Of a stretch of DNA of 64,000 nt, positions 470-42,124 are shown piece after piece; the first letter of the stretch is position 1; the number at the start of each line of letters is the position of its first letter. Below the pieces are notes generated by a model. That model saw nothing but the letters and a program-made list of their open reading frames with translations. It ran no database searches and was not told where the DNA came from. The position numbers and the translations under genes are program-made. The stretch lies in NCBI RefSeq assembly GCF_056746865.1, contig NZ_CM163382.1. One strand, written 5' to 3'.

Positions 470-1813
470 ATGGCGAACAGCATCACGGCGGATGAGATTC
501 GGGAACAGTTTTCGCAGGCAATGTCAGCCATGTACCAGCAAGAAGTTCCGCAGTACGGCACGCTGCTGGAACTGGTAGCTGATGTGAATCTGGCTGTGCT
601 GGAAAACAATCCTCAACTGCACGAAAAAATGGTAAATGCAGACGAGCTGGCGCGACTGAATGTTGAACGTCATGGGGCGATTCGTGTTGGGACTGCACAA
701 GAGCTTGCTACTCTTCGGCGGATGTTTGCCATTATGGGGATGTACCCGGTGAGCTATTACGATCTCTCGCAGGCGGGGGTGCCGGTACATTCGACAGCAT
801 TTCGGCCCATTGATGATGCTTCTCTGGCGCGTAATCCCTTCCGCGTTTTTACTTCATTACTCCGCCTTGAGCTTATCGAGAACGAAATTTTGCGCCAGAA
901 AGCGGCGGAGATTCTGCGTCAGCGCGATATCTTCACCCCACGTTGTCGACAACTGTTAGAGGAATATGAGCAGCGGCGCGGTTTTAACGAAACACAGGCA
1001 CAGGAGTTTGTGCAGGAAGCCCTGGAAACGTTTCGTTGGCACCAGTCAGCAACGGTAGATGAAGAAACCTATCGCGCCTTGCACAACGAACATCGGTTGA
1101 TTGCTGATGTGGTCTGTTTTCCTGGATGCCATATCAACCACCTGACGCCACGTACGCTGGATATTGACCGGGTGCAGTCGATGATGCCTGAATGCGGGAT
1201 TGAACCCAAAATTCTGATCGAAGGGCCGCCGCGCCGCGAGGTACCTATTTTACTACGCCAGACCAGCTTTAAAGCACTGGAAGAGACGGTGTTGTTTGCA
1301 GGGCAGAAACAGGGTACGCATACCGCGCGCTTTGGTGAAATAGAGCAGCGTGGTGTGGCATTAACGCCGAAAGGGCGACAACTGTATGATGATCTTCTGC
1401 GTAACGCTGGAACCGGGCAGGATAATCTCACTCACCAAATGCATTTACAGGAAACCTTCCGCACTTTTCCTGACAGTGAGTTTTTAATGCGTCAGCAAGG
1501 GTTGGCATGGTTCCGGTACCGTCTGACGCCTTCAGGTGAGGCGCATCGTCAGGCGATTCATCCCGGAGACGATCCACAGCCCTTAATTGAACGTGGTTGG
1601 GTAGTGGCGCAACCCATTACCTATGAAGATTTCTTGCCCGTTAGCGCGGCGGGGATCTTCCAGTCAAATCTGGGTAATGAAACGCAGGCACGCAATCACG
1701 GTAATGCCAGTCGCGAGGCATTTGAGCAGGCGTTGGGTTGTCCGGTTTTGGATGAGTTCCAGCTTTATCAGGAAGCGGAAGAACGCAGTAAACGTCGCTG
1801 TGGTTTGCTTTAA
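470..1813 (+). CDS. ydcJ: DUF1338-family protein YdcJ
   Basis: 447-aa ORF with ATG start; sequence and position match the K-12 gene from memory. Confidence 0.85.
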   Translation: MANSITADEIREQFSQAMSAMYQQEVPQYGTLLELVADVNLAVLENNPQLHEKMVNADELARLNVERHGAIRVGTAQELATLRRMFAIMGMYPVSYYDLSQAGVPVHSTAFRPIDDASLARNPFRVFTSLLRLELIENEILRQKAAEILRQRDIFTPRCRQLLEEYEQRRGFNETQAQEFVQEALETFRWHQSATVDEETYRALHNEHRLIADVVCFPGCHINHLTPRTLDIDRVQSMMPECGIEPKILIEGPPRREVPILLRQTSFKALEETVLFAGQKQGTHTARFGEIEQRGVALTPKGRQLYDDLLRNAGTGQDNLTHQMHLQETFRTFPDSEFLMRQQGLAWFRYRLTPSGEAHRQAIHPGDDPQPLIERGWVVAQPITYEDFLPVSAAGIFQSNLGNETQARNHGNASREAFEQALGCPVLDEFQLYQEAEERSKRRCGLL

Positions 1814-2037
1814 ATTCTGACCATCCGCCTTTGCAAAAATTTGCCTGATTTTACAAACGAATCAGGCTCATCCCATCGACATAAAAAAATTGCCGATTTA
1901 TGCATATTCTCTCAGTTCAACAATTGGATTATTAATAAATATTGTCTAGAGTGAGCGGTCATAAATAAGCACTTTCTTGCCGCTGAAAACGACCAGCGCG
2001 GGACCATTCACAACACCAGAAGGACTCACTTTCAGGT

Positions 2038-3693
2038 ATGGATCGTAGACGATTTATTAAAGGTTCAATGGCTATGGCCGCCGTGTGCGGTACCAGCGGC
2101 ATTGCTTCTCTTTTTTCTCAGGCGGCATTCGCGGCAGATTCTGATATTGCCGACGGGCAAACCCAACGTTTTGACTTCTCCATTCTACAGTCAATGGCGC
2201 ACGACTTAGCGCAAACAGCGTGGCGTGGTGCGCCGCGTCCGTTACCTGACACTCTGGCGACAATGACGCCGCAGGCTTATAACAGTATTCAATACGACGC
2301 CGAAAAATCGCTCTGGCATAACGTTGAGAACCGTCAACTGGACGCTCAGTTCTTCCATATGGGAATGGGATTCCGTCGCCGCGTTCGTATGTTTTCTGTA
2401 GATCCAGCAACACATCTGGCGCGTGAAATTCACTTTCGCCCGGAGTTGTTCAAATACAACGATGCGGGTGTTGATACCAAACAATTAGAAGGGCAAAGTG
2501 ATCTCGGTTTTGCCGGTTTTCGCGTGTTTAAAGCCCCCGAACTGGCGCGCCGTGATGTCGTATCATTCCTCGGCGCGAGTTATTTCCGCGCGGTTGATGA
2601 TACATATCAATACGGTTTGTCGGCTCGCGGCCTGGCGATCGACACTTACACCGACAGTAAAGAAGAGTTCCCCGACTTTACCGCCTTCTGGTTTGATACG
2701 GTAAAACCGGGGGCAACCACCTTTACCGTTTATGCGTTGCTCGATAGCGCCAGCATTACTGGTGCCTATAAGTTCACTATCCATTGCGAGAAAAGTCAGG
2801 TGATTATGGATGTGGAAAATCACCTGTATGCGCGCAAAGACATTAAACAGCTGGGCATTGCGCCGATGACCAGTATGTTCAGCTGCGGTACTAATGAACG
2901 TCGGATGTGCGACACCATTCATCCGCAAATCCATGACTCTGATCGTTTGTCCATGTGGCGGGGTAACGGCGAGTGGATTTGTCGTCCGCTGAACAATCCA
3001 CAAAAATTGCAGTTCAATGCTTACACCGACAACAACCCGAAAGGGTTTGGTTTATTGCAACTGGATCGTGATTTCTCCCATTATCAGGACATTATGGGCT
3101 GGTATAACAAACGCCCAAGTCTGTGGGTGGAGCCGCGTAACAAGTGGGGTAAGGGCACCATCGGCCTGATGGAAATCCCAACTACGGGTGAAACGCTGGA
3201 TAACATTGTCTGCTTCTGGCAGCCAGAAAAAGCTGTAAAAGCGGGTGATGAGTTTGCATTCCAGTATCGTCTGTACTGGAGTGCGCAACCGCCTGTTCAT
3301 TGCCCATTAGCGCGCGTTATGGCGACGCGTACCGGCATGGGTGGTTTCCCGGAAGGTTGGGCGCCAGGTGAACACTATCCCGAAAAATGGGCGCGTCGTT
3401 TTGCCGTCGATTTCGTTGGTGGTGATCTGAAAGCTGCCGCGCCAAAAGGCATTGAGCCGGTGATTACGCTTTCCAGTGGGGAAGCGAAGCAAATCGAAAT
3501 TCTCTATATTGAACCCATTGATGGTTATCGTATTCAGTTTGACTGGTATCCGACTTCGGACTCCACTGATCCGGTCGATATGCGGATGTATCTGCGTTGT
3601 CAGGGCGACGCTATCAGTGAAACATGGCTGTATCAGTATTTCCCGCCAGCGCCGGATAAACGTCAGTATGTTGACGACCGCGTGATGAGTTAA
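2038..3693 (+). CDS. opgD: Glucans biosynthesis protein D (periplasmic, Tat signal)
   Basis: 551-aa ORF; N-terminus [32 protein letters not shown] has a twin-arginine motif; matches OpgD/MdoD. Confidence 0.9.
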
Positions 3694-32174: not shown

Positions 32175-32459
32175 ATGCCTTTAGCAGCCAAACTCACCGA
32201 CAAAGGCACCCAGCACGACGGTTATTACGAGACCGTCATCACCGCCGGGTCATCCACCGTCTTTATCGATGGTCTTCCCGCAGCCCGTCAGGGAGATCCG
32301 CTGACGCCGCATGCTAAACCGAAGCATCCCCCTCATCCCCGTAAAATCGCCAGAGGTTCTTCAACCGTCTTTATTGACGGCCTGCCCGCCGCCAGAAGCG
32401 GTGATGCTGTTGACTGCGGCGGCGTGGTTATTGGTGGCGGTACGGTAAATATAGGCTGA
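32175..32459 (+). CDS. PAAR-repeat protein (T6SS spike tip)
   Basis: 94-aa ORF with aggagg SD; duplicated GSSTVFIDGLPAAR(Q/S)GD motif. Confidence 0.75.
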   Translation: MPLAAKLTDKGTQHDGYYETVITAGSSTVFIDGLPAARQGDPLTPHAKPKHPPHPRKIARGSSTVFIDGLPAARSGDAVDCGGVVIGGGTVNIG

Positions 32460-32477: not shown

Positions 32478-34883
32478 ATGTCCTTAAAAGGTCTTCGCTT
32501 TACGCTGGAGGTTGACGGCCAGGAGCCGGACACCTTTGCAGTGGTGAATTTCAGGTTAATCCAGAACCAGTCATATCCGTTTGTGATGAGTGTGGATGTT
32601 GCCAGCGACTCTTTTATGCAGACGGCGGAGATGCTGCTGGAGAAGAAGGCGACACTGACCATCTGGCAGGGCGCAGTGGCGCAGCGTTATGTCACCGGCG
32701 TGGTGGCGGGTTTTGGCATGCAGGAGAATAACGGCTGGCAGATGCGTTATCACCTGCGTATTGAGCCGCCGTTATGGCGGTGCGGGCTGCGGCAGAACTT
32801 TCGTATCTTCCAGCAGCAGGATATCCGGACGATATCGGCCACGTTACTGAACGAGAACGGCGTCACGGAGTGGACGCCGCTGTTTTATGAGGACCATCCG
32901 GCGCGGGAGTTCTGTGTCCAGTACGGGGAGTCGGACCTGGCGTTTCTGTCCCGGCTATGGGCGGAGGAGGGTCTTTTCTTCTTTGAGCGGTTTGCGGCGG
33001 ACAGTCCGGAGCAGAAGCTGACGCTGTGCGACGATGTGGCGGGGCTGTCACAGGCGGGGGAGTTTCCGTTTAACCCGGACACATCGGCAGGAGCGGAGAC
33101 GGAGTGTGTCAGTATGTTCCGTTATGAGGCGCATGTCCGCCCGTCATCGGTGCAGAGCCAGGATTACACCTTTAAGGTGCCGGACTGGCCGGGGATGTAT
33201 GAGCAGCAGGGTGAGAACCTGAACGGACAGCTGGAGCAGTATGAGATATTTGATTATCCGGGAAGGTACAAGGATGAACAGCACGGCAAGGATTTCACGC
33301 TGTACCAGATGGAGAGCCTGCGCAGTGATGCGGAAAAGGCCACAGGGCAGAGTAATTCGCCGAAGCTGTGGCCGGGAACGCGGTTTATGCTGACGGGGCA
33401 TCCGCAGAAGATGCTGAACCGTGAATGGCAGGTGGTACAGAGCATACTGTCAGGAAACCAGCCGCAGGCGCTGCACGGCAGCCAGGGAAAGGGAACCACG
33501 CTGGGCAATCAGTTAGAGGTGATACCGGCGGACCGGACGTGGCGTCCACGGCTGCAAAACAAACCGAAGGTGGACGGGCCACAGAGCGCCATTGTCACCG
33601 GTCCTGCGGGAGAGGAAATCTTCTGCGACGAACACGGACGTGTGCGAGTGCAGTTTCACTGGGACAGGTATAACCCGGCAACGGAGGCGAGTTCATGCTG
33701 GGTGAGGGTGTCGCAGGCGTGGGCGGGGCCGGGGTTCGGTAACCTGGCGATACCACGGGTGGGTCAGGAGGTGATAGTGGACTTCCTGAACGGCGACCCG
33801 GACCAGCCGATAATCATGGGGCGGACGTACCATGAGGACAACCGTTCGCCGGGCGACCTGCCGGGAACGAAGACGCAGATGACCATCCGGTCAAAAACCT
33901 ATAAAGGAAGCGGATTTAACGAGCTGCGGTTTGAAGACGCCACCAGTAATGAGCAGGTGTATATCCATGCCCAGAAGAACATGGATACGGAGGTGCTCAA
34001 CGACCGGACAACGGATGTGAAACATGACCATACGGAAACCATCGGGAACGACCAGAAGATAACGGTGGTGAAGGGGCAGACGGTTCAGGTCGGGACCAGA
34101 AAAGAAGGGGGCCACGACCAGAGTATCACGGTGGCGAACGACCGGTGCATCACGGTACGTAATGACCAGACGCTGCAGGTGACGAATGACCGGACGGTGA
34201 GCGTGAGTAATGATGACGGCCTGTACGTCAGAAATGACCGTAAAGTGACGGTGGAAGGGAAGCAGGAGCATAAGACGACGGGGAACCATATCAGTCTGGT
34301 GGAGGGAAAGCACAGCCTGGTGGTGAAGGGGGACCTGGCGAGGAAGGTGAGTGGCGCGCTGGGGATAAAGGTGGACGGGGATATCGTGCTGGAGAGCAGC
34401 AGCCGGATAAGCCTGAAGGTGAGTGGCTCGTTTGTGGTCATCCATTCAGGGGGCGTGGACATCGTCGGGCCGAAAATCAATCTCAATAGCGGCGGTAGTC
34501 CGGGGACGCCGGTGCCGGCGCTGCAACCGGCGGTGCTGAAGACACTGGGGGATGAGAAGAGTGGTGATGGCAGTGATTCCGGAGAAGAAAATGAAGACTC
34601 TGGAGGGAACTGCGTGACCGGAAGTGGTGGTGATGATCGAGGTGACGATGAGGATGAACCTGAAAAATATACTCTCCAGTTCCATTTTACAGACGATGAC
34701 GGGATACCGTATTCAGAAACCCGCTACATTGCCTTCTTTGAGGATGGCACGCAGACCCGCGGAGAAACGGATGAAGAGGGGTATACAGAGCGTTTTTTTG
34801 TATCTAGCAAACATGAAATTAAAGTGAAGTTGTTATTTGCGAATGATGATTTTCTCTCAATGGAAGGACACTATGGACGATAA
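32478..34883 (+). CDS. vgrG: VgrG (type VI secretion spike protein) with C-terminal extension
   Basis: 801-aa ORF: gp27/gp5-like N-terminal part, beta-helix repeats (ITVANDRCITVRNDQTLQVTNDRTVSVSNDDGLYVRNDRKVTV), acidic Gly/Asp/Glu linker, then a ~70-aa C-terminal domain. Confidence 0.9.
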   Translation: MSLKGLRFTLEVDGQEPDTFAVVNFRLIQNQSYPFVMSVDVASDSFMQTAEMLLEKKATLTIWQGAVAQRYVTGVVAGFGMQENNGWQMRYHLRIEPPLWRCGLRQNFRIFQQQDIRTISATLLNENGVTEWTPLFYEDHPAREFCVQYGESDLAFLSRLWAEEGLFFFERFAADSPEQKLTLCDDVAGLSQAGEFPFNPDTSAGAETECVSMFRYEAHVRPSSVQSQDYTFKVPDWPGMYEQQGENLNGQLEQYEIFDYPGRYKDEQHGKDFTLYQMESLRSDAEKATGQSNSPKLWPGTRFMLTGHPQKMLNREWQVVQSILSGNQPQALHGSQGKGTTLGNQLEVIPADRTWRPRLQNKPKVDGPQSAIVTGPAGEEIFCDEHGRVRVQFHWDRYNPATEASSCWVRVSQAWAGPGFGNLAIPRVGQEVIVDFLNGDPDQPIIMGRTYHEDNRSPGDLPGTKTQMTIRSKTYKGSGFNELRFEDATSNEQVYIHAQKNMDTEVLNDRTTDVKHDHTETIGNDQKITVVKGQTVQVGTRKEGGHDQSITVANDRCITVRNDQTLQVTNDRTVSVSNDDGLYVRNDRKVTVEGKQEHKTTGNHISLVEGKHSLVVKGDLARKVSGALGIKVDGDIVLESSSRISLKVSGSFVVIHSGGVDIVGPKINLNSGGSPGTPVPALQPAVLKTLGDEKSGDGSDSGEENEDSGGNCVTGSGGDDRGDDEDEPEKYTLQFHFTDDDGIPYSETRYIAFFEDGTQTRGETDEEGYTERFFVSSKHEIKVKLLFANDDFLSMEGHYGR

Positions 34884-35664
34884 TAATCAAACTTCTGGAC
34901 AACCAAAGCCAGAGCCAGAAGAATGTGTGAAAGAGCAAAAAATAACTGATCATTTTAAAATAATGATTGATAAGGCTCGTAAGGCACAAAAGTTGGTTTT
35001 GATAAAAAGAGCAGATGATCTTTTGAGATGGGGAGCACAGGAGGAATATGATTTCAGTAAGATCTTTGGTGTTAAAGGAAATAAGGAGGTTAATATAAGA
35101 AAATATGGACATAATACAGGTAGGCGCATGAATGCTAGATTTCTTATGATGGATGGTGTGAGAAGATTAATGATTATAGCTAATGATTTAACAATGAGCA
35201 GTTTTATAAATTATACAGGTTGTAATGAATTTGCAGCATTCGTCAGCCCAAGTAAGGATATGCCCTATATAATTAACATAGGCGCAAAATTTGAGTATAG
35301 AGATGGCAAAAAAAATCCAGTAACGGGAAAGGATTCTCATGTTGCTACTTTATGTCATGAAATGTCTCATATTCAGTGGTATTATGGGGATAATAAAAAA
35401 GGTGGTATGTGGTCACAGGATTATACAACTACTGATAAATATTCAACGTGCAAAGAGGATGAAGTTTCATATGACGAACATATCCGTATTGCAACTAAAC
35501 TGATCTCTAAACAAAAAGATCAAATATTCGAGAATGCATATAACATAGAAAGATATTTTGAAATAAGATTAATTGAAAGTGAGATAGACTCGATTAATGA
35601 TGAAATATTAAGCAATTCAGTTAAGAAAAAAATAGCGGAATTAGAAAAAGCACTTCTCCATTAA
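34873..35664 (+). CDS. Candidate VgrG cargo effector with HExxH (zincin-like) motif
   Basis: ATG overlaps the vgrG stop (ATGGACGATAA); 263 aa; HEMSH at nt 35356-35370; GC content drops sharply at the vgrG stop. Confidence 0.55.
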   Translation: MDDNNQTSGQPKPEPEECVKEQKITDHFKIMIDKARKAQKLVLIKRADDLLRWGAQEEYDFSKIFGVKGNKEVNIRKYGHNTGRRMNARFLMMDGVRRLMIIANDLTMSSFINYTGCNEFAAFVSPSKDMPYIINIGAKFEYRDGKKNPVTGKDSHVATLCHEMSHIQWYYGDNKKGGMWSQDYTTTDKYSTCKEDEVSYDEHIRIATKLISKQKDQIFENAYNIERYFEIRLIESEIDSINDEILSNSVKKKIAELEKALLH

Positions 35665-35716
35665 CTAATAAGTCGAGAAATATATTAATGCTGCAAGCTA
35701 TAAAAAAATCATAATA

Positions 35717-36346
35717 ATGACAATCGTAAATATTATATTTTTCTATTCCTTTCAATCGACTGCGGATGAAATGGTTTTAATAAAAAAATACGGGTTTGGG
35801 CTTGAGAGAGATATCAAAGGAAGGCCATTAATTTATCCTATCGAAAATTATGATGAGTGTAAGAAAAAATGCAATCATATGAATTATATAGCGGATGTCA
35901 ATGCTCAATTAGCTATGAGTAAAAAAAACAACAGGATTTTTGCTAACATAACCTTTACTAACAATAGCTCTACCACGTATTTTTTTTCTAAATATTACCT
36001 ACCTATGAAAGTAAAAGATGGAAAAGGAGATGAATATGATGCGATATGCAAAAAACCATTCAGAATCAACTCTGGGAATATCACGTTGGACTACTTAGGT
36101 GGTTCATGTCCTTTTGAAATTAATACGAATCCTGAACGGTGGAATACTATTAAACCAGGTCGTAGTTTTTTGTTGAGTATAACCTTAAATGATATGTATG
36201 CCTTTATACCAGGAGATAATTATTATTTTATAAAATCATCTGGCTATAAATTTGTTAATGACAAGTGGTTTACACTCAAATCAATCAATAATATTTTTCT
36301 TTATTTTTTAAATTTAAAAATTAATTGTGCTGATGATTTTTTTTGA
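35717..36346 (+). CDS. Hypothetical protein, candidate immunity partner (ends at a T8 tract)
   Basis: 209-aa AT-rich ORF directly downstream of the effector candidate; stop lies in a T8 homopolymer; downstream ORF 36327-36509 is in the +1 frame. Confidence 0.4.
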   Translation: MTIVNIIFFYSFQSTADEMVLIKKYGFGLERDIKGRPLIYPIENYDECKKKCNHMNYIADVNAQLAMSKKNNRIFANITFTNNSSTTYFFSKYYLPMKVKDGKGDEYDAICKKPFRINSGNITLDYLGGSCPFEINTNPERWNTIKPGRSFLLSITLNDMYAFIPGDNYYFIKSSGYKFVNDKWFTLKSINNIFLYFLNLKINCADDFF

Positions 36347-36528
36347 TATTAATAATTTTACTACATGTGATAATTTGTTATTAGATGAAAAAAAATACTT
36401 TTTTATTAATCAGTTATGGGCAATTGAGGATGAAAAAAATTCTATTTACGTCACCCCTGATGAAATTTCTATAAGTATAGACGGCGATAACTTAAAGTTG
36501 CCATATTAGGAATCTGTGAAAGAACAAG

Positions 36529-37017
36529 GTGCGCCGCTTTTTTGTACTAAATAATTCGCATTTTAGTCACGGCAGAGAAGAAATCCATCTTCATATTGTT
36601 TGCGATGTCCCTGATGAACTTATTGATTTCACGTTTGAATGGAAAGGTCAGAAGAAATTATGCGTGGCAGTCTCCTTTTGGTCAATAATAGCAGAACAAA
36701 AGAAAGAGCCAGAAATGACGGTCAGATATTATATCAGTTCTGCTGATTTAACCGCAAAAAAGTTCGCCACAGCGATACGAAATCACTGGCACGTGGAGAA
36801 TAAGCTGCACTGGCGTCTGGACGTGGTAATGAACGAAGACGACTGCAAAATAAGAAGAGGAAACGCCGCAGAATTATTTTCAGGGATACGGCACATCGCT
36901 ATTAATATTTTAACGAATGATAAGGTATTCAAGGCAGGGTTAAGACGCAAGATGCGAAAAGCAGCTATGGACAGAGACTACCTCGCGTCAGTCCTTGCGG
37001 GGAGCGGGCTTTCGTAA
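36529..37017 (+). pseudogene. H-repeat-associated (ISAs1-family transposase) 3' remnant
   Basis: Translation ...[44 protein letters not shown]...[22 protein letters not shown] resembles the C-terminus of H-rpt proteins; no N-terminal half present. Confidence 0.7.
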
Positions 37018-37125: not shown

Positions 37126-37686
37126 ATGAAAAAAAGCAAAAAAATTAAAACAATGAACCATCAAAATAATAGCGGGATACAAAATCAACCAGACTATCAC
37201 ATCGAAATAGAAAGAAAAAATATGGTAAGATTGCTTGATGAACGTATTGATAAAGTTTACGGTTCATTGCTAGGACCAATGAAAAAGAAAAATATAGATA
37301 AAATACGTCATTTTACACTTGATGTAATGGTGTTTATTCTTGACACGAACCCTCGTGTTTGTAATAAATTATCCAGGGAAATAATATCTTTAGCGCAAAA
37401 TACCTTCATTGAAAAAAACGTTAATTTTTCAACTTTTAATAATGAACAGCATAGAATAAGGGAGTATATGAATGAAGGTGGTGGAATACGATGGTTTACA
37501 TGGGATAACCCCGAGATATCTTTTGTTCGTGCATCTTTTGGCCTTTTTGTCAAAATGGAAACAAAAGGTGATCATGAACATACACTAAGTGACACATTTC
37601 TTCAGATTGTTGAGTGTGTTAATTTAAATATAGGACTTATTGCAAAAGATGAACTGGTAAAAATCATCAATAAACACTTTATGTAA
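37126..37686 (+). CDS. Hypothetical protein (AT-rich orphan ORF)
   Basis: 186-aa ORF, ATG with acgagg SD, low GC; no motif recognised. Confidence 0.45.
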   Translation: MKKSKKIKTMNHQNNSGIQNQPDYHIEIERKNMVRLLDERIDKVYGSLLGPMKKKNIDKIRHFTLDVMVFILDTNPRVCNKLSREIISLAQNTFIEKNVNFSTFNNEQHRIREYMNEGGGIRWFTWDNPEISFVRASFGLFVKMETKGDHEHTLSDTFLQIVECVNLNIGLIAKDELVKIINKHFM

Positions 37687-38045: not shown

Positions 38046-38681
38046 ATGAATAAAGGTAATAGATTACAACAGTTAGAAGATGCGTGTCGTGATATTATTA
38101 AAATTAACATGTGGTATGAACTCCCCGATTATGTATTTTTTTCAATATCTGACACCATCGATGGGACGAGTGATGAATTCGCAATAAATGTGTATAAAAA
38201 TATCGATAAAAGTCTTCTTGAAATATTATTGCATCCATCTGTTTTACTGTCAGTTGTTGAGTCCTTACAAAGTAATACTATAGCTGAGTATATCGTGAAA
38301 TTGTCTGAAATAGAGATGAATTATGACGACTTGCTAATATCGGATGTTAAATCATGTCTTTTTATCAACTATGGATTCAATAACAGTGAATCGGTTGCGC
38401 TATTTAATAAGATTTACCGCGAATTAAAAGATATTGTAAAATCATCAAGAGTACATATAGATCATGAGAAAGATATTTTTGATGGCCTTAATCAAATCTT
38501 GGCTTTTTCCGATAATAATAAACATGAGTATTTTTTATATATAAAGGCATATTGGCTCAGTTTATACTTTTGTGAAATTTCACAGAACGTGAGAGAAAGA
38601 GATAAGTTGTCATTTTATTATAATGAATTTTCTGTCCGATTTCCTAATGTTGTCCTATATCCGTCATGCTACAAATTGTAA
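38046..38681 (+). CDS. Hypothetical protein (AT-rich orphan ORF)
   Basis: 211-aa ORF, ATG start, low GC; no motif recognised. Confidence 0.45.
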   Translation: MNKGNRLQQLEDACRDIIKINMWYELPDYVFFSISDTIDGTSDEFAINVYKNIDKSLLEILLHPSVLLSVVESLQSNTIAEYIVKLSEIEMNYDDLLISDVKSCLFINYGFNNSESVALFNKIYRELKDIVKSSRVHIDHEKDIFDGLNQILAFSDNNKHEYFLYIKAYWLSLYFCEISQNVRERDKLSFYYNEFSVRFPNVVLYPSCYKL

Positions 38682-40663: not shown

Positions 40664-40743
40664 TTTATGTCAGGTTGCCGGATGCGGCGTAATGAACTGC
40701 ACCCCAAATGTTGGACATAATCTGACATCTGAAGGTGCAGTTT

Positions 40744-41265
40744 ATGAAACATTCATTTGAAGTAAAACTTGCCGCTGTAAATCATTACCTGGCTGGTCAT
40801 GCAGGCATCATTTCTACGGTAAAACTCTTTCAACTTTCTCACACCAGCCTCTCACACTGGATTAATCTTTTTCTTCTTCACGGTCCTCGGGCACTGGATT
40901 GCAGACACAAGCGTAGCTATTCTCCTGAAGATAAACTTTGCGTGGTTCTTTATGCTCTCGGGCATTCTGAGTCTCTACCCCGGGTAGCTGCCCGGTTTAA
41001 CATTCCCAGCCACAACACGGTTAAAAACTGGATAAAAGGCTACCGCAAATCTGGTAATGAGGCCTTTATCAGGCGCAGGAAGGAGAAAAGCATGACCCGT
41101 TCTGATGATACCCATGAAAACGAGGCAAACATGACGCCGGAAGAGATGAAGAATGAGCTGCGTTATCTTCGCGCAGAAAATGCATATCTGAAAGCCATGC
41201 AGGAGCATCTCCTGGAAAAAAAGCGCCAGGAGCTGGAGAAAAAACGAAAGTCATCCGGAGCCTGA
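40744..41265 (+). CDS. IS3-family transposase OrfA (HTH)
   Basis: ATG at 40744 with gaaggtg SD; ends shortly after the slippery heptamer A_AAA_AAG at 41217-41223. Confidence 0.8.
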   Translation: MKHSFEVKLAAVNHYLAGHAGIISTVKLFQLSHTSLSHWINLFLLHGPRALDCRHKRSYSPEDKLCVVLYALGHSESLPRVAARFNIPSHNTVKNWIKGYRKSGNEAFIRRRKEKSMTRSDDTHENEANMTPEEMKNELRYLRAENAYLKAMQEHLLEKKRQELEKKRKSSGA

Positions 41266-41369
41266 GGTGCGGACACTGCCAGTCTGACCTGTTAAAGGCT
41301 GCAGGGCTGGCCAGAAGCACGCTGTACTACCAGCTGTCACTGCAGAAGGCTAAGGACAAGTATGCTGAT

Positions 41370-42124
<755 letters not shown>

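Follow-up and report, generated by a model that had tools for sequence, protein, structure and literature searches.

A widespread one-base expansion of a thymine tract truncates the putative immunity gene of an M35-like type VI effector in Escherichia coli

Why does a gene that lies directly behind a type VI secretion system (T6SS) effector gene end in the middle of a run of eight thymines? The gene belongs to a 64,000-nt stretch of Escherichia coli DNA (RefSeq assembly GCF_056746865.1, contig NZ_CM163382.1), referred to here as the window, whose numbering we use throughout. A preliminary description of the letters alone had seen in it a candidate immunity gene split at a T8 homopolymer, and had offered three explanations: a real frameshift mutation, a homopolymer sequencing error or a slippage-prone tract that gives variable expression. 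The comparisons presented below favour the first. The tract probably marks a truncating frameshift, fixed in one lineage, in a decaying immunity gene for the adjacent M35-like effector.

The tract occupies positions 36337–36344 of the plus strand. The open reading frame (ORF) that enters it, ORF1 (35717–36346, plus strand), is a cut-short form of the putative immunity gene that starts with ATG and encodes 209 amino acids (aa). Its last codons are GAT GAT TTT TTT TGA, so that the TGA stop (36344–36346) begins with the eighth T. ORF2, in the +1 frame relative to ORF1, runs from GTG 36327 or ATG 36333 to 36509. These features are as the preliminary description gave them, and its prediction that loss of one T would fuse the two ORFs also holds, although the fused product is 263 aa from ATG 35717 rather than about 265 aa. 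The in-frame allele is T7, with codons GAT TTT TTT GAT (D-F-F-D). A tract of T6 or T9 at 36337 would give a different short tail out of frame, and one of T10 would bring the frame back. When T7 is combined with A8 at 35702–35708, where the window has A7, ATG 35688 is brought into frame and the ORF becomes 273 aa long. The stop created by T8 falls at residue 219 of this 273-aa form, which is residue 209 counted from the start codon in the window.

Intact versions of the gene, which is present in about 640 of 5,426 complete E. coli genomes, are found in nature. In enteroaggregative E. coli (EAEC) 042, the same island carries an effector identical to that of the window (WP_000342577.1), followed by an uninterrupted 273-aa ORF with T7 (WP_001544554.1). 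Strains PCP06238 and NC101 also have T7 and an intact 273-aa ORF behind an identical or near-identical effector, and a T7 orthologue of 273 aa with at least 90% identity occurs in Salmonella enterica subsp. arizonae/indica. A set of orthologues that all carry T8 ahead of an unrelated downstream gene, the pattern that the preliminary description had named as contrary to its proposal, was not seen. As judged from these alleles, T7 is the ancestral state at 36337, and what the preliminary description had called a split immunity-type gene downstream of an effector corresponds to one continuous gene in T7 strains, the immunity role being a prediction from its position and family.

More distant relatives extend this picture. 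An exhaustive HMMER search gave 88 family representatives; the alignments of the full-length ones (250–310 aa, 25–39% identity) extend as far as the C-terminus of the 273-aa form. In an alignment of 54 sequences, 52 of the 53 distant homologues have at least 35 residues beyond the position of the tract, and the segment past the tract approaches the core in conservation (1.67 against 1.90 bits per column). This segment contains a second conserved cysteine and a motif of the type 'IRSNQV...IDG'. The first cysteine, C214, is conserved in at least 90% of the sequences, and the second, about 20 residues further on, in most homologues. Because full-length homologues align through to the end of the 273-aa form and share this conserved segment, ORF2 is, on the alignment, the displaced C-terminus of one protein and not a separate gene. 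An independent downstream gene was considered and rejected: ORF2 has no Shine–Dalgarno (SD) sequence, is annotated nowhere and matches the conserved C-terminus of single-chain homologues. Complementation in trans, with a separate ORF2 peptide joining an exported N-terminal part, is implausible, since such a peptide would have no export signal. In public genomes, the NCBI pipeline annotates loci with the 219-aa or 209-aa product as encoding an ordinary 'hypothetical protein', with the frameshift unflagged and 36347–36509 unannotated.

Is the eighth T real? Assemblies from 454, PacBio and nanopore reads typically err by homopolymer indels, and some singleton variants, such as that of CH4796, may be of this kind. 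The same T8, however, sits in an exact 91-nt T8+A8 haplotype in 95 complete genomes from many sources, laboratories and sequencing platforms. The exact 219-aa product is found on at least 1,000 contigs and the window's exact 209-aa product on 478, and whereas the usual long-read errors contract runs, T8 is an expansion. A miscall in this assembly can practically be dismissed, and the T7 orthologues together with the 95 T8 genomes support a real mutation.

The haplotype counts also show how the alleles are distributed. Within the sequence class that includes 042 and the window (186 genomes), 95 are exact T8A8, 46 are exact T7A8, the intact type, and about 19 are T7A7. The Nissle/CFT073 class (411 genomes) has 152 exact T7A7 alleles, in which the frame is lost at 36388 and the product, 261 aa long, ends in an alien tail; as estimated from evenly spaced rows, about 117 others are NC101-like T7A8 and about 69 are 536-like. 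T8 is also present on the very different single-nucleotide polymorphism (SNP) background of O145 RM9467, and so either arose at least twice or moved by recombination.

What would the truncation remove? An AlphaFold2 (AF2) model of the 273-aa form (predicted local distance difference test (pLDDT) 86, predicted template modelling score (pTM) 0.77) has an N-terminal helix corresponding to the signal sequence, a beta-sandwich (residues 35–190), a helix (192–207), a loop (208–229), a second helix (230–251) and a hairpin (252–265). The loop is modelled with low confidence and is bracketed by the conserved C214 and C234, and the T tract encodes residues 217–219 within it. ORF1 therefore contains the hydrophobic signal sequence, a KYGFG motif, the beta-sandwich core, the helix 192–207 and the first half of the C214...C234 loop (273-aa numbering). 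The out-of-frame remainder (36345–36509, plus strand, 54 codons), delimited by the family alignment and the AF2 model, encodes the second conserved cysteine, the helix 230–251, the hairpin 252–265 and the conserved C-terminal motif, with the helix and hairpin modelled at pLDDT 94–97. From the sequence, we consider it likely that immunity function is lost or strongly reduced by T8.

The truncation might instead be benign, with the N-terminal 219 (or 209) residues neutralising the effector and the C-terminal module being dispensable or serving only for fine-tuning. The effector, VgrG and PAAR genes are intact in the sampled T8 strains of the window type, and the T8 allele is very common. Four observations make this unlikely. 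First, the C-terminal 54 residues, with the second cysteine and a confidently modelled fold, are retained in 52 of the 53 distant homologues at nearly the conservation of the core. Second, the analogous immunity protein PA0261 needs disulfide formation for its stability (PMC6899460). Third, further frameshifts gather on the T8 background, suggesting relaxed constraint. Fourth, frameshifts in early tracts also lie behind full-length effectors, as in 2018-05-2CC and BCE049.

The window's allele carries a second lesion, which the preliminary description does not mention. The tract at 35702–35708 (plus strand) is A7 in the window and A8 in most strains. In A8 alleles (118UI, 042 and Nissle), the ORF begins at ATG 35688 and reads MLQAIKKIIIMTIV..., with MLQAIKK, a hydrophobic core and a cleavage-like site between STA and DE making up a putative Sec-type signal peptide. 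With A7, the ancestral start is reduced to an 8-codon upstream ORF (35688–35714, plus strand; MLQAIKKS and a stop) that finishes 3 nt ahead of ATG 35717. The lysine-containing basic n-region of the Sec signal peptide is thereby taken away, and the window's protein begins MTIVNIIFF.... Because the N-termini of the family are Sec-like, combining a K/R n-region with a conserved KYGYG motif after the signal peptide, we count T8 and A7 as two lesions in this allele, of which A7 would further weaken the export signal. The window differs in length by 1 base from most of its near-identical relatives; this difference, first ascribed to the T tract, proved to be the A7/A8 tract at 35702. A7/A8 variation at this tract recurs on at least five SNP backgrounds (the window, ATCC 25922, PapM-32-1, 2018-05-2CC and 536/HB37), and A7 is also found with an otherwise intact ORF (P0102, 263 aa, 294 contigs).

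The same kind of change is spread along the whole gene. In an alignment of 21 alleles, lengths change at about seven A/T tracts. In addition to A8/A7 at 35702 and T7/T8 at 36337, these include A7/A6 at 35782 and A5/A6 at 36311. The tract at 35921–35928 (plus strand) is A8 or A7, with A7 in 536, ABU 83972, HB37, O145 and BCE049, and the 536-type fragment occurs on at least 1,000 contigs. That at 35980–35987 (plus strand) is T8 or T7, with T7 in KE47 (on the background with T8 at 36337), FDAARGOS_1300, 2018-05-2CC and BCE049, and products on 328 and 237 contigs. At 36388–36395 (plus strand) the window has the in-frame A8, whereas the Nissle/CFT073 and THO-008 lineages have A7 and CH4796 has A9; at 36433–36439 (plus strand) the window has A7, where some lineages show A8 or A6. 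Just 3 of the 21 aligned alleles are intact, and we estimate that roughly a quarter of carrier genomes keep the gene intact, the toxin gene often still being whole.

Alleles with several hits are common, with four lesions in O145 RM9467, at least three in 536, BCE049 and FDAARGOS_1300, and two each in the window and KE47. The second hits on the T8 background are themselves widespread, with the window's A7 on 478 contigs and the T7 at 35980 of KE47 on 328. Most other frameshift products checked were each found on hundreds to more than 1,000 contigs, which argues that most of the tract diversity is real; the product of CH4796 was the only one of those checked to be absent from the protein collection. 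This pattern is, as read from the alleles, one of progressive decay at mutational hot spots and not of a reversible switch. The further idea that strains with intact effectors carry only late, C-terminal frameshifts did not hold cleanly, as KE47, 2018-05-2CC and BCE049 shift early behind full-length effectors.

The preliminary description's third option, a slippage-prone tract, is correct in that tract-length polymorphism between lineages is real and extensive; as a mechanism of expression, it fares less well. The density of tracts is high: among the 29 A/T runs of 7 nt or longer in the window, nine lie in 35.3–36.5 kb (P < 0.001 against mononucleotide or codon-order shuffles), and the intact gene alone has seven runs of at least 7 nt and four of at least 8 nt (P ≤ 0.004 for nucleotide or codon-order shuffles). 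When synonymous codons are permuted, however, a mean of 6.9 runs of at least 7 nt is obtained against the seven observed (P = 0.63). The intact gene uses AAA over AAG 23:3 and TTT over TTC 20:2, and the tract density is as expected from KK and FF dipeptides together with this AAA/TTT codon bias. Selected enrichment of tracts was accordingly rejected.

Could the frameshift be read through all the same? Were ribosomes to shift +1 at UUU-UGA, or RNA polymerase to drop a U, enough full-length protein might be made for the locus to act as a 'pseudo-pseudogene'. The site has features that would allow this: UUU UUU UGA permits perfect +1 re-pairing of tRNA-Phe on the overlapping UUU, the next +1 codon, GAU, gives back the native sequence, and the downstream frame is open. 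Non-programmed ribosomal frameshifting suppresses frameshifts at about 1% in E. coli (PMC10861913), and slippage on transcripts grows with the length of A/T runs (PMC5574713, PMC1088944). By contrast, the features of a dedicated site are missing. None of AGGA, GAGG, GGAGG or GGGG, as SD-like stimulators, occurs in the 36 nt upstream of the tract, and the downstream RNA structure is not unusual (z = −1.25). The two-frame arrangement is not conserved, the genes of 042, PCP06238, NC101 and Salmonella being single T7 ORFs and the distant homologues single proteins. Restoring the frame from T8 requires −1 or +2 nt, and transcriptional slippage in E. coli runs gives insertions, deletions there being rare (PMC5574713); slippage is usually significant, and selection against runs typically begins, from 9 nt (PMC1088944), whereas this run has 8 nt. 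Finally, the upstream secondary frameshifts in T8 sub-lineages would void any rescue. By these comparisons, T8 is not a programmed recoding signal; background suppression at about 1% may give traces of full-length protein, but leakage sufficient for immunity seems improbable.

Two known classes of site help to place the tract. It resembles the +1 site of prfB, the gene of release factor 2 (RF2), in having a shift-prone P-site codon directly before UGA and perfect +1 re-pairing of the P-site tRNA, and differs from it in having no upstream Shine–Dalgarno stimulator, in its 3′ context of UGA-U and in being unconserved, with orthologues in frame. It also resembles homopolymer frameshift pseudogenes with slippage rescue, such as poly-A genes of endosymbionts and 9A/9T sites (PMC1088944, PMC5574713), in combining a single-base indel in an A/T run, an AT-rich gene and a remaining ORF that is open; unlike those, its run of 8 nt is under the 9-nt threshold and its rescue would need a deletion, the rare direction in E. 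coli.

A related proposal is that the A/T tracts form a contingency locus, reversibly turning the gene on and off at high frequency so that E. coli populations vary in immunity or in what it costs to produce. At least seven tracts do vary, the A7/A8 difference at 35702 and the T7/T8 difference at 36337 are both found on two or more SNP backgrounds, and PCP06238, with T7 on the SNP background of the T8 lineage, could be either an ancestor or a revertant. Against this stand the agreement between tract number and the expectation from protein sequence and codon bias, the shortness of the tracts (only 7–8 nt of A/T, in a species proficient in mismatch repair) and the confinement of T8 almost wholly to one SNP background. 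The tract is also stable: all listed Nissle 1917 assemblies are identical, and three laboratory-derived 'capsule spontaneous mutant' genomes are all T8A8, which is a coarse test. Moreover, the off alleles gain further lesions and do not stay otherwise intact. We regard such switching as highly improbable. The boldest combination, in which the T tract in the Cys–Cys loop is a population switch or leaky recoding site and the immunity protein a free-standing descendant of a protease propeptide, also has little probability in our view; if it were true, T8 cells would retain a small but sufficient amount of full-length immunity protein or revert usefully, and lineages would tune immunity to their own M35 toxin.

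We thus return to a lineage-fixed frameshift, which several points weigh against. T8 leaves untouched the beta-sandwich, whose fold is the one reminiscent of protease-inhibitory domains, and the 209-aa or 219-aa product might still bind the effector. Five T8 loci on the window-type background were sampled, the window itself among them, and each retains an intact effector, VgrG and PAAR; the T8 allele of O145 RM9467 comes with a degraded effector. The very wide spread of the T8 allele would be surprising if loss of immunity were costly. UUU-UGA is shift-prone in principle and may allow small amounts of full-length protein. Some of the tract contractions that occur as singletons in long-read assemblies could be errors, that of CH4796 among them.

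Taking these points into account, we propose the following course for the frameshift. The ancestral gene would have encoded a 273-aa exported, presumably periplasmic, immunity protein against the adjacent M35-like effector carried by VgrG, made up of a Sec signal peptide, a propeptide-like beta-sandwich, a variable loop flanked by the two conserved cysteines and, at the C-terminus, a helix and hairpin. In the window's lineage, replication slippage would have inserted a T (T7 to T8) inside the Cys–Cys loop, removing C234 and the conserved C-terminal module and leaving C214 without the partner of a probable disulfide. A later slip from A8 to A7 at 35702–35708 would then have cost the signal peptide its charged start. 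The T8 allele is inherited vertically and is one of many independent homopolymer frameshifts across E. coli in this cassette (28% GC). Loss of immunity could be tolerated because the effector would do harm only through delivery by sister cells; the cost would be small, and the change perhaps close to neutral, if the island or the T6SS is rarely active.

The surroundings of the gene fit an effector–immunity arrangement. The window covers the E. coli ansP-yncG ... yddH-nhoA interval with a T6SS satellite island consisting of PAAR, VgrG, M35-like effector and immunity genes, all on the plus strand; no T6SS core cluster lies within the window. The PAAR gene (32175–32459) is annotated at an identical locus as encoding a 'type VI secretion system PAAR protein' (WP_001127492.1). 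It is followed by an intact gene for an 801-aa VgrG/TssI spike (32478–34883; annotated tssI, WP_000053614.1) and by the intact cargo effector gene (34873–35664; 'peptidase M35', WP_000342577.1), which encodes a 263-aa M35/aspzincin-like zinc metallopeptidase with an HEMSH motif. The immunity gene lies directly downstream of the effector gene on the same strand, the order expected of an effector–immunity pair in a vgrG/PAAR island. GC content is 48% in the window, 32% in the cassette from the effector onward and 28% in the immunity gene. A promoter and terminator scan of 34.5–37.2 kb gave counts not above those of shuffled sequences.

The effector matches Pfam Aspzincin_M35 (PF14521) with E = 0.002 and 18.8 bits; since this is below the gathering score of 30 bits, the protein is, by sequence, a divergent member of M35/aspzincin. 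Its AF2 model (pLDDT 89.6) is closest in the PDB to the Grifola peptidyl-Lys metalloendopeptidase 1ge6 (template modelling (TM) score 0.74, Foldseek). H162, E163, H166 and D183 are invariant in 21 homologues, so that the HExxH motif, the downstream Asp ligand and the aspzincin fold are all present. The C-terminus of the effector varies among strains, ending in ...SNSVKKKIAELEKALLH (263 aa) in the window, 042 and NC101 and in ...SNSVKKK (253 aa) in 536, HB37, FDAARGOS_1300 and XM, presumably through a change in A-tract length near the A7 at 35626–35632.

Several observations on the cassette in other strains stand apart from the frameshift at 36337. In Nissle 1917, ABU 83972 and ATCC 25922, the immunity gene forms a second, orphan-like cassette (locus positions about 1–2300), preceded by genes for a shorter, different 'peptidase M35' of 200 aa (WP_000107952.1) and a hypothetical protein of 227 aa (WP_223931539.1); the match to the window starts only about 40 nt before the gene start, which suggests stacking or replacement of cassettes at the locus. 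Chimeric ORFs, in which a truncated M35 effector or a VgrG fragment is fused to the immunity gene, occur in public assemblies as the proteins P0003, P0005, P0006 and P0009, and in P0006 a frameshift at the 36388 tract is followed by restoration of the frame at the 36433 tract. These chimaeras and the restored frame point to deletions or recombination, with compensating indels, in the cassette of some strains. In PCP06238, whose immunity gene is intact on the SNP background of the T8 lineage, the annotation marks vgrG (locus 671–3063) as frameshifted; which part of the module is broken differs from strain to strain.

Downstream, the cassette is bounded by a remnant of an ISAs1-family (H-repeat) transposase gene (36529–37017, plus strand; Pfam DDE_Tnp_1, E = 7e-9), which the annotation lists as an incomplete ISAs1 transposase. 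Next come two hypothetical ORFs, AT-rich and conserved, at 37126–37686 (WP_000748591.1, 186 aa) and 38046–38681 (WP_001032567.1, 211 aa). Neither has a Pfam match or an obvious signal peptide, and they may be orphan immunity genes or remnants of toxin tips. The remnant and the two ORFs sit at the position of the rhsE/ydcD/H-repeat region of K-12. Just downstream of nhoA lies a two-ORF element of the insertion sequence family IS3 (40735–42092); at the matching position in PCP06238, the annotation assigns the element to the IS1397 family and notes a programmed frameshift.

As a mutation, the frameshift at 36337 is ordinary: it lies in an AT-rich immunity gene that came in by horizontal transfer and is in decay across much of E. 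coli. Of moderate interest are how extensively frameshifts recur in this gene, the mis-annotation in public genomes and the propeptide-like fold of an uncharacterised family. For annotation, the 209-aa or 219-aa 'hypothetical protein' in thousands of genomes merits a flag as a frameshifted copy of a 273-aa gene. The intact alleles, C-terminal truncations and early truncations make up a natural allelic series that could show which part of the immunity protein is needed, whether orphan vgrG islands of E. coli fire and whether strains become vulnerable to kin that retain the effector. The likeness of the immunity core to the non-catalytic part of the AsaP1 proenzyme, set beside the M35 catalytic fold of the toxin, also suggests a simple, testable mechanism of inhibition and a possible origin of the family.

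Three known systems come close to this pair. In E. coli PAR, the M35 toxin of a vgrG locus, M35(PAR), is neutralised by the product of a downstream gene, AKO63_2956 (PMC10673891). As compared by description only, the two systems share a vgrG locus, an M35 metallopeptidase and a downstream immunity gene; in PAR, unlike here, a DUF2345 module is a separate gene between vgrG and toxin.

The VgrG2b-Cter/PA0261 (Tpe/Tpi) pair of Pseudomonas aeruginosa has a toxin that acts in the periplasm and an immunity protein that needs its signal peptide and DsbA (PMC6899460). Both systems have a T6SS spike-associated HEXXH metallopeptidase, an immunity gene directly downstream and conserved cysteines, partially so in PA0261; in our family these are C214 and the second cysteine, which would form a disulfide. 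The differences are considerable. Here the effector is a cargo protein of its own and has the M35/aspzincin fold; phmmer against PDB sequences gave for it only a weak AsaP1 match (E = 1.3), and Foldseek gave Grifola 1ge6 and 1g12 as top matches and no VgrG2b chain at E ≤ 10. PA0261 homologues are small ORFs and, in Enterobacteriaceae, lipoproteins (PMC6899460), whereas our family is about 270–300 aa long and without a lipobox, the 273-aa protein having no cysteine in or after the signal sequence before C58. A link to PA0261/Tpi through the Salmonella arizonae orthologue proved unsupported, as SARI_02726 of Wood et al. is a small outer-membrane lipoprotein. Membership of the Tpe/Tpi family is thus not supported, and only its logic is shared.

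The closest structural match to the immunity model is AsaP1, an M35 aspzincin from Aeromonas salmonicida whose proenzyme has been crystallised together with the propeptide (PDB 2x3a/b/c; Foldseek E = 4e-7). As the match comes without residue ranges, we place it on the propeptide by exclusion: the core of the immunity protein is all-beta, whereas most of the catalytic fold is helical. Searches of the immunity protein against Pfam gave sub-threshold DUF matches only, and the 54-member profile had no match at E ≤ 10 among all PDB sequences; sequence similarity to AsaP1 is undetectable, and common ancestry with M35 propeptides is therefore unsupported by sequence. The immunity protein also differs from the propeptide in being free-standing, in its predicted export and in its extra Cys–Cys loop and C-terminal helix–hairpin. 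As modelled, however, its core resembles the AsaP1 propeptide in fold, and the pair looks like an M35 protease accompanied by a free-standing, propeptide-like inhibitor.

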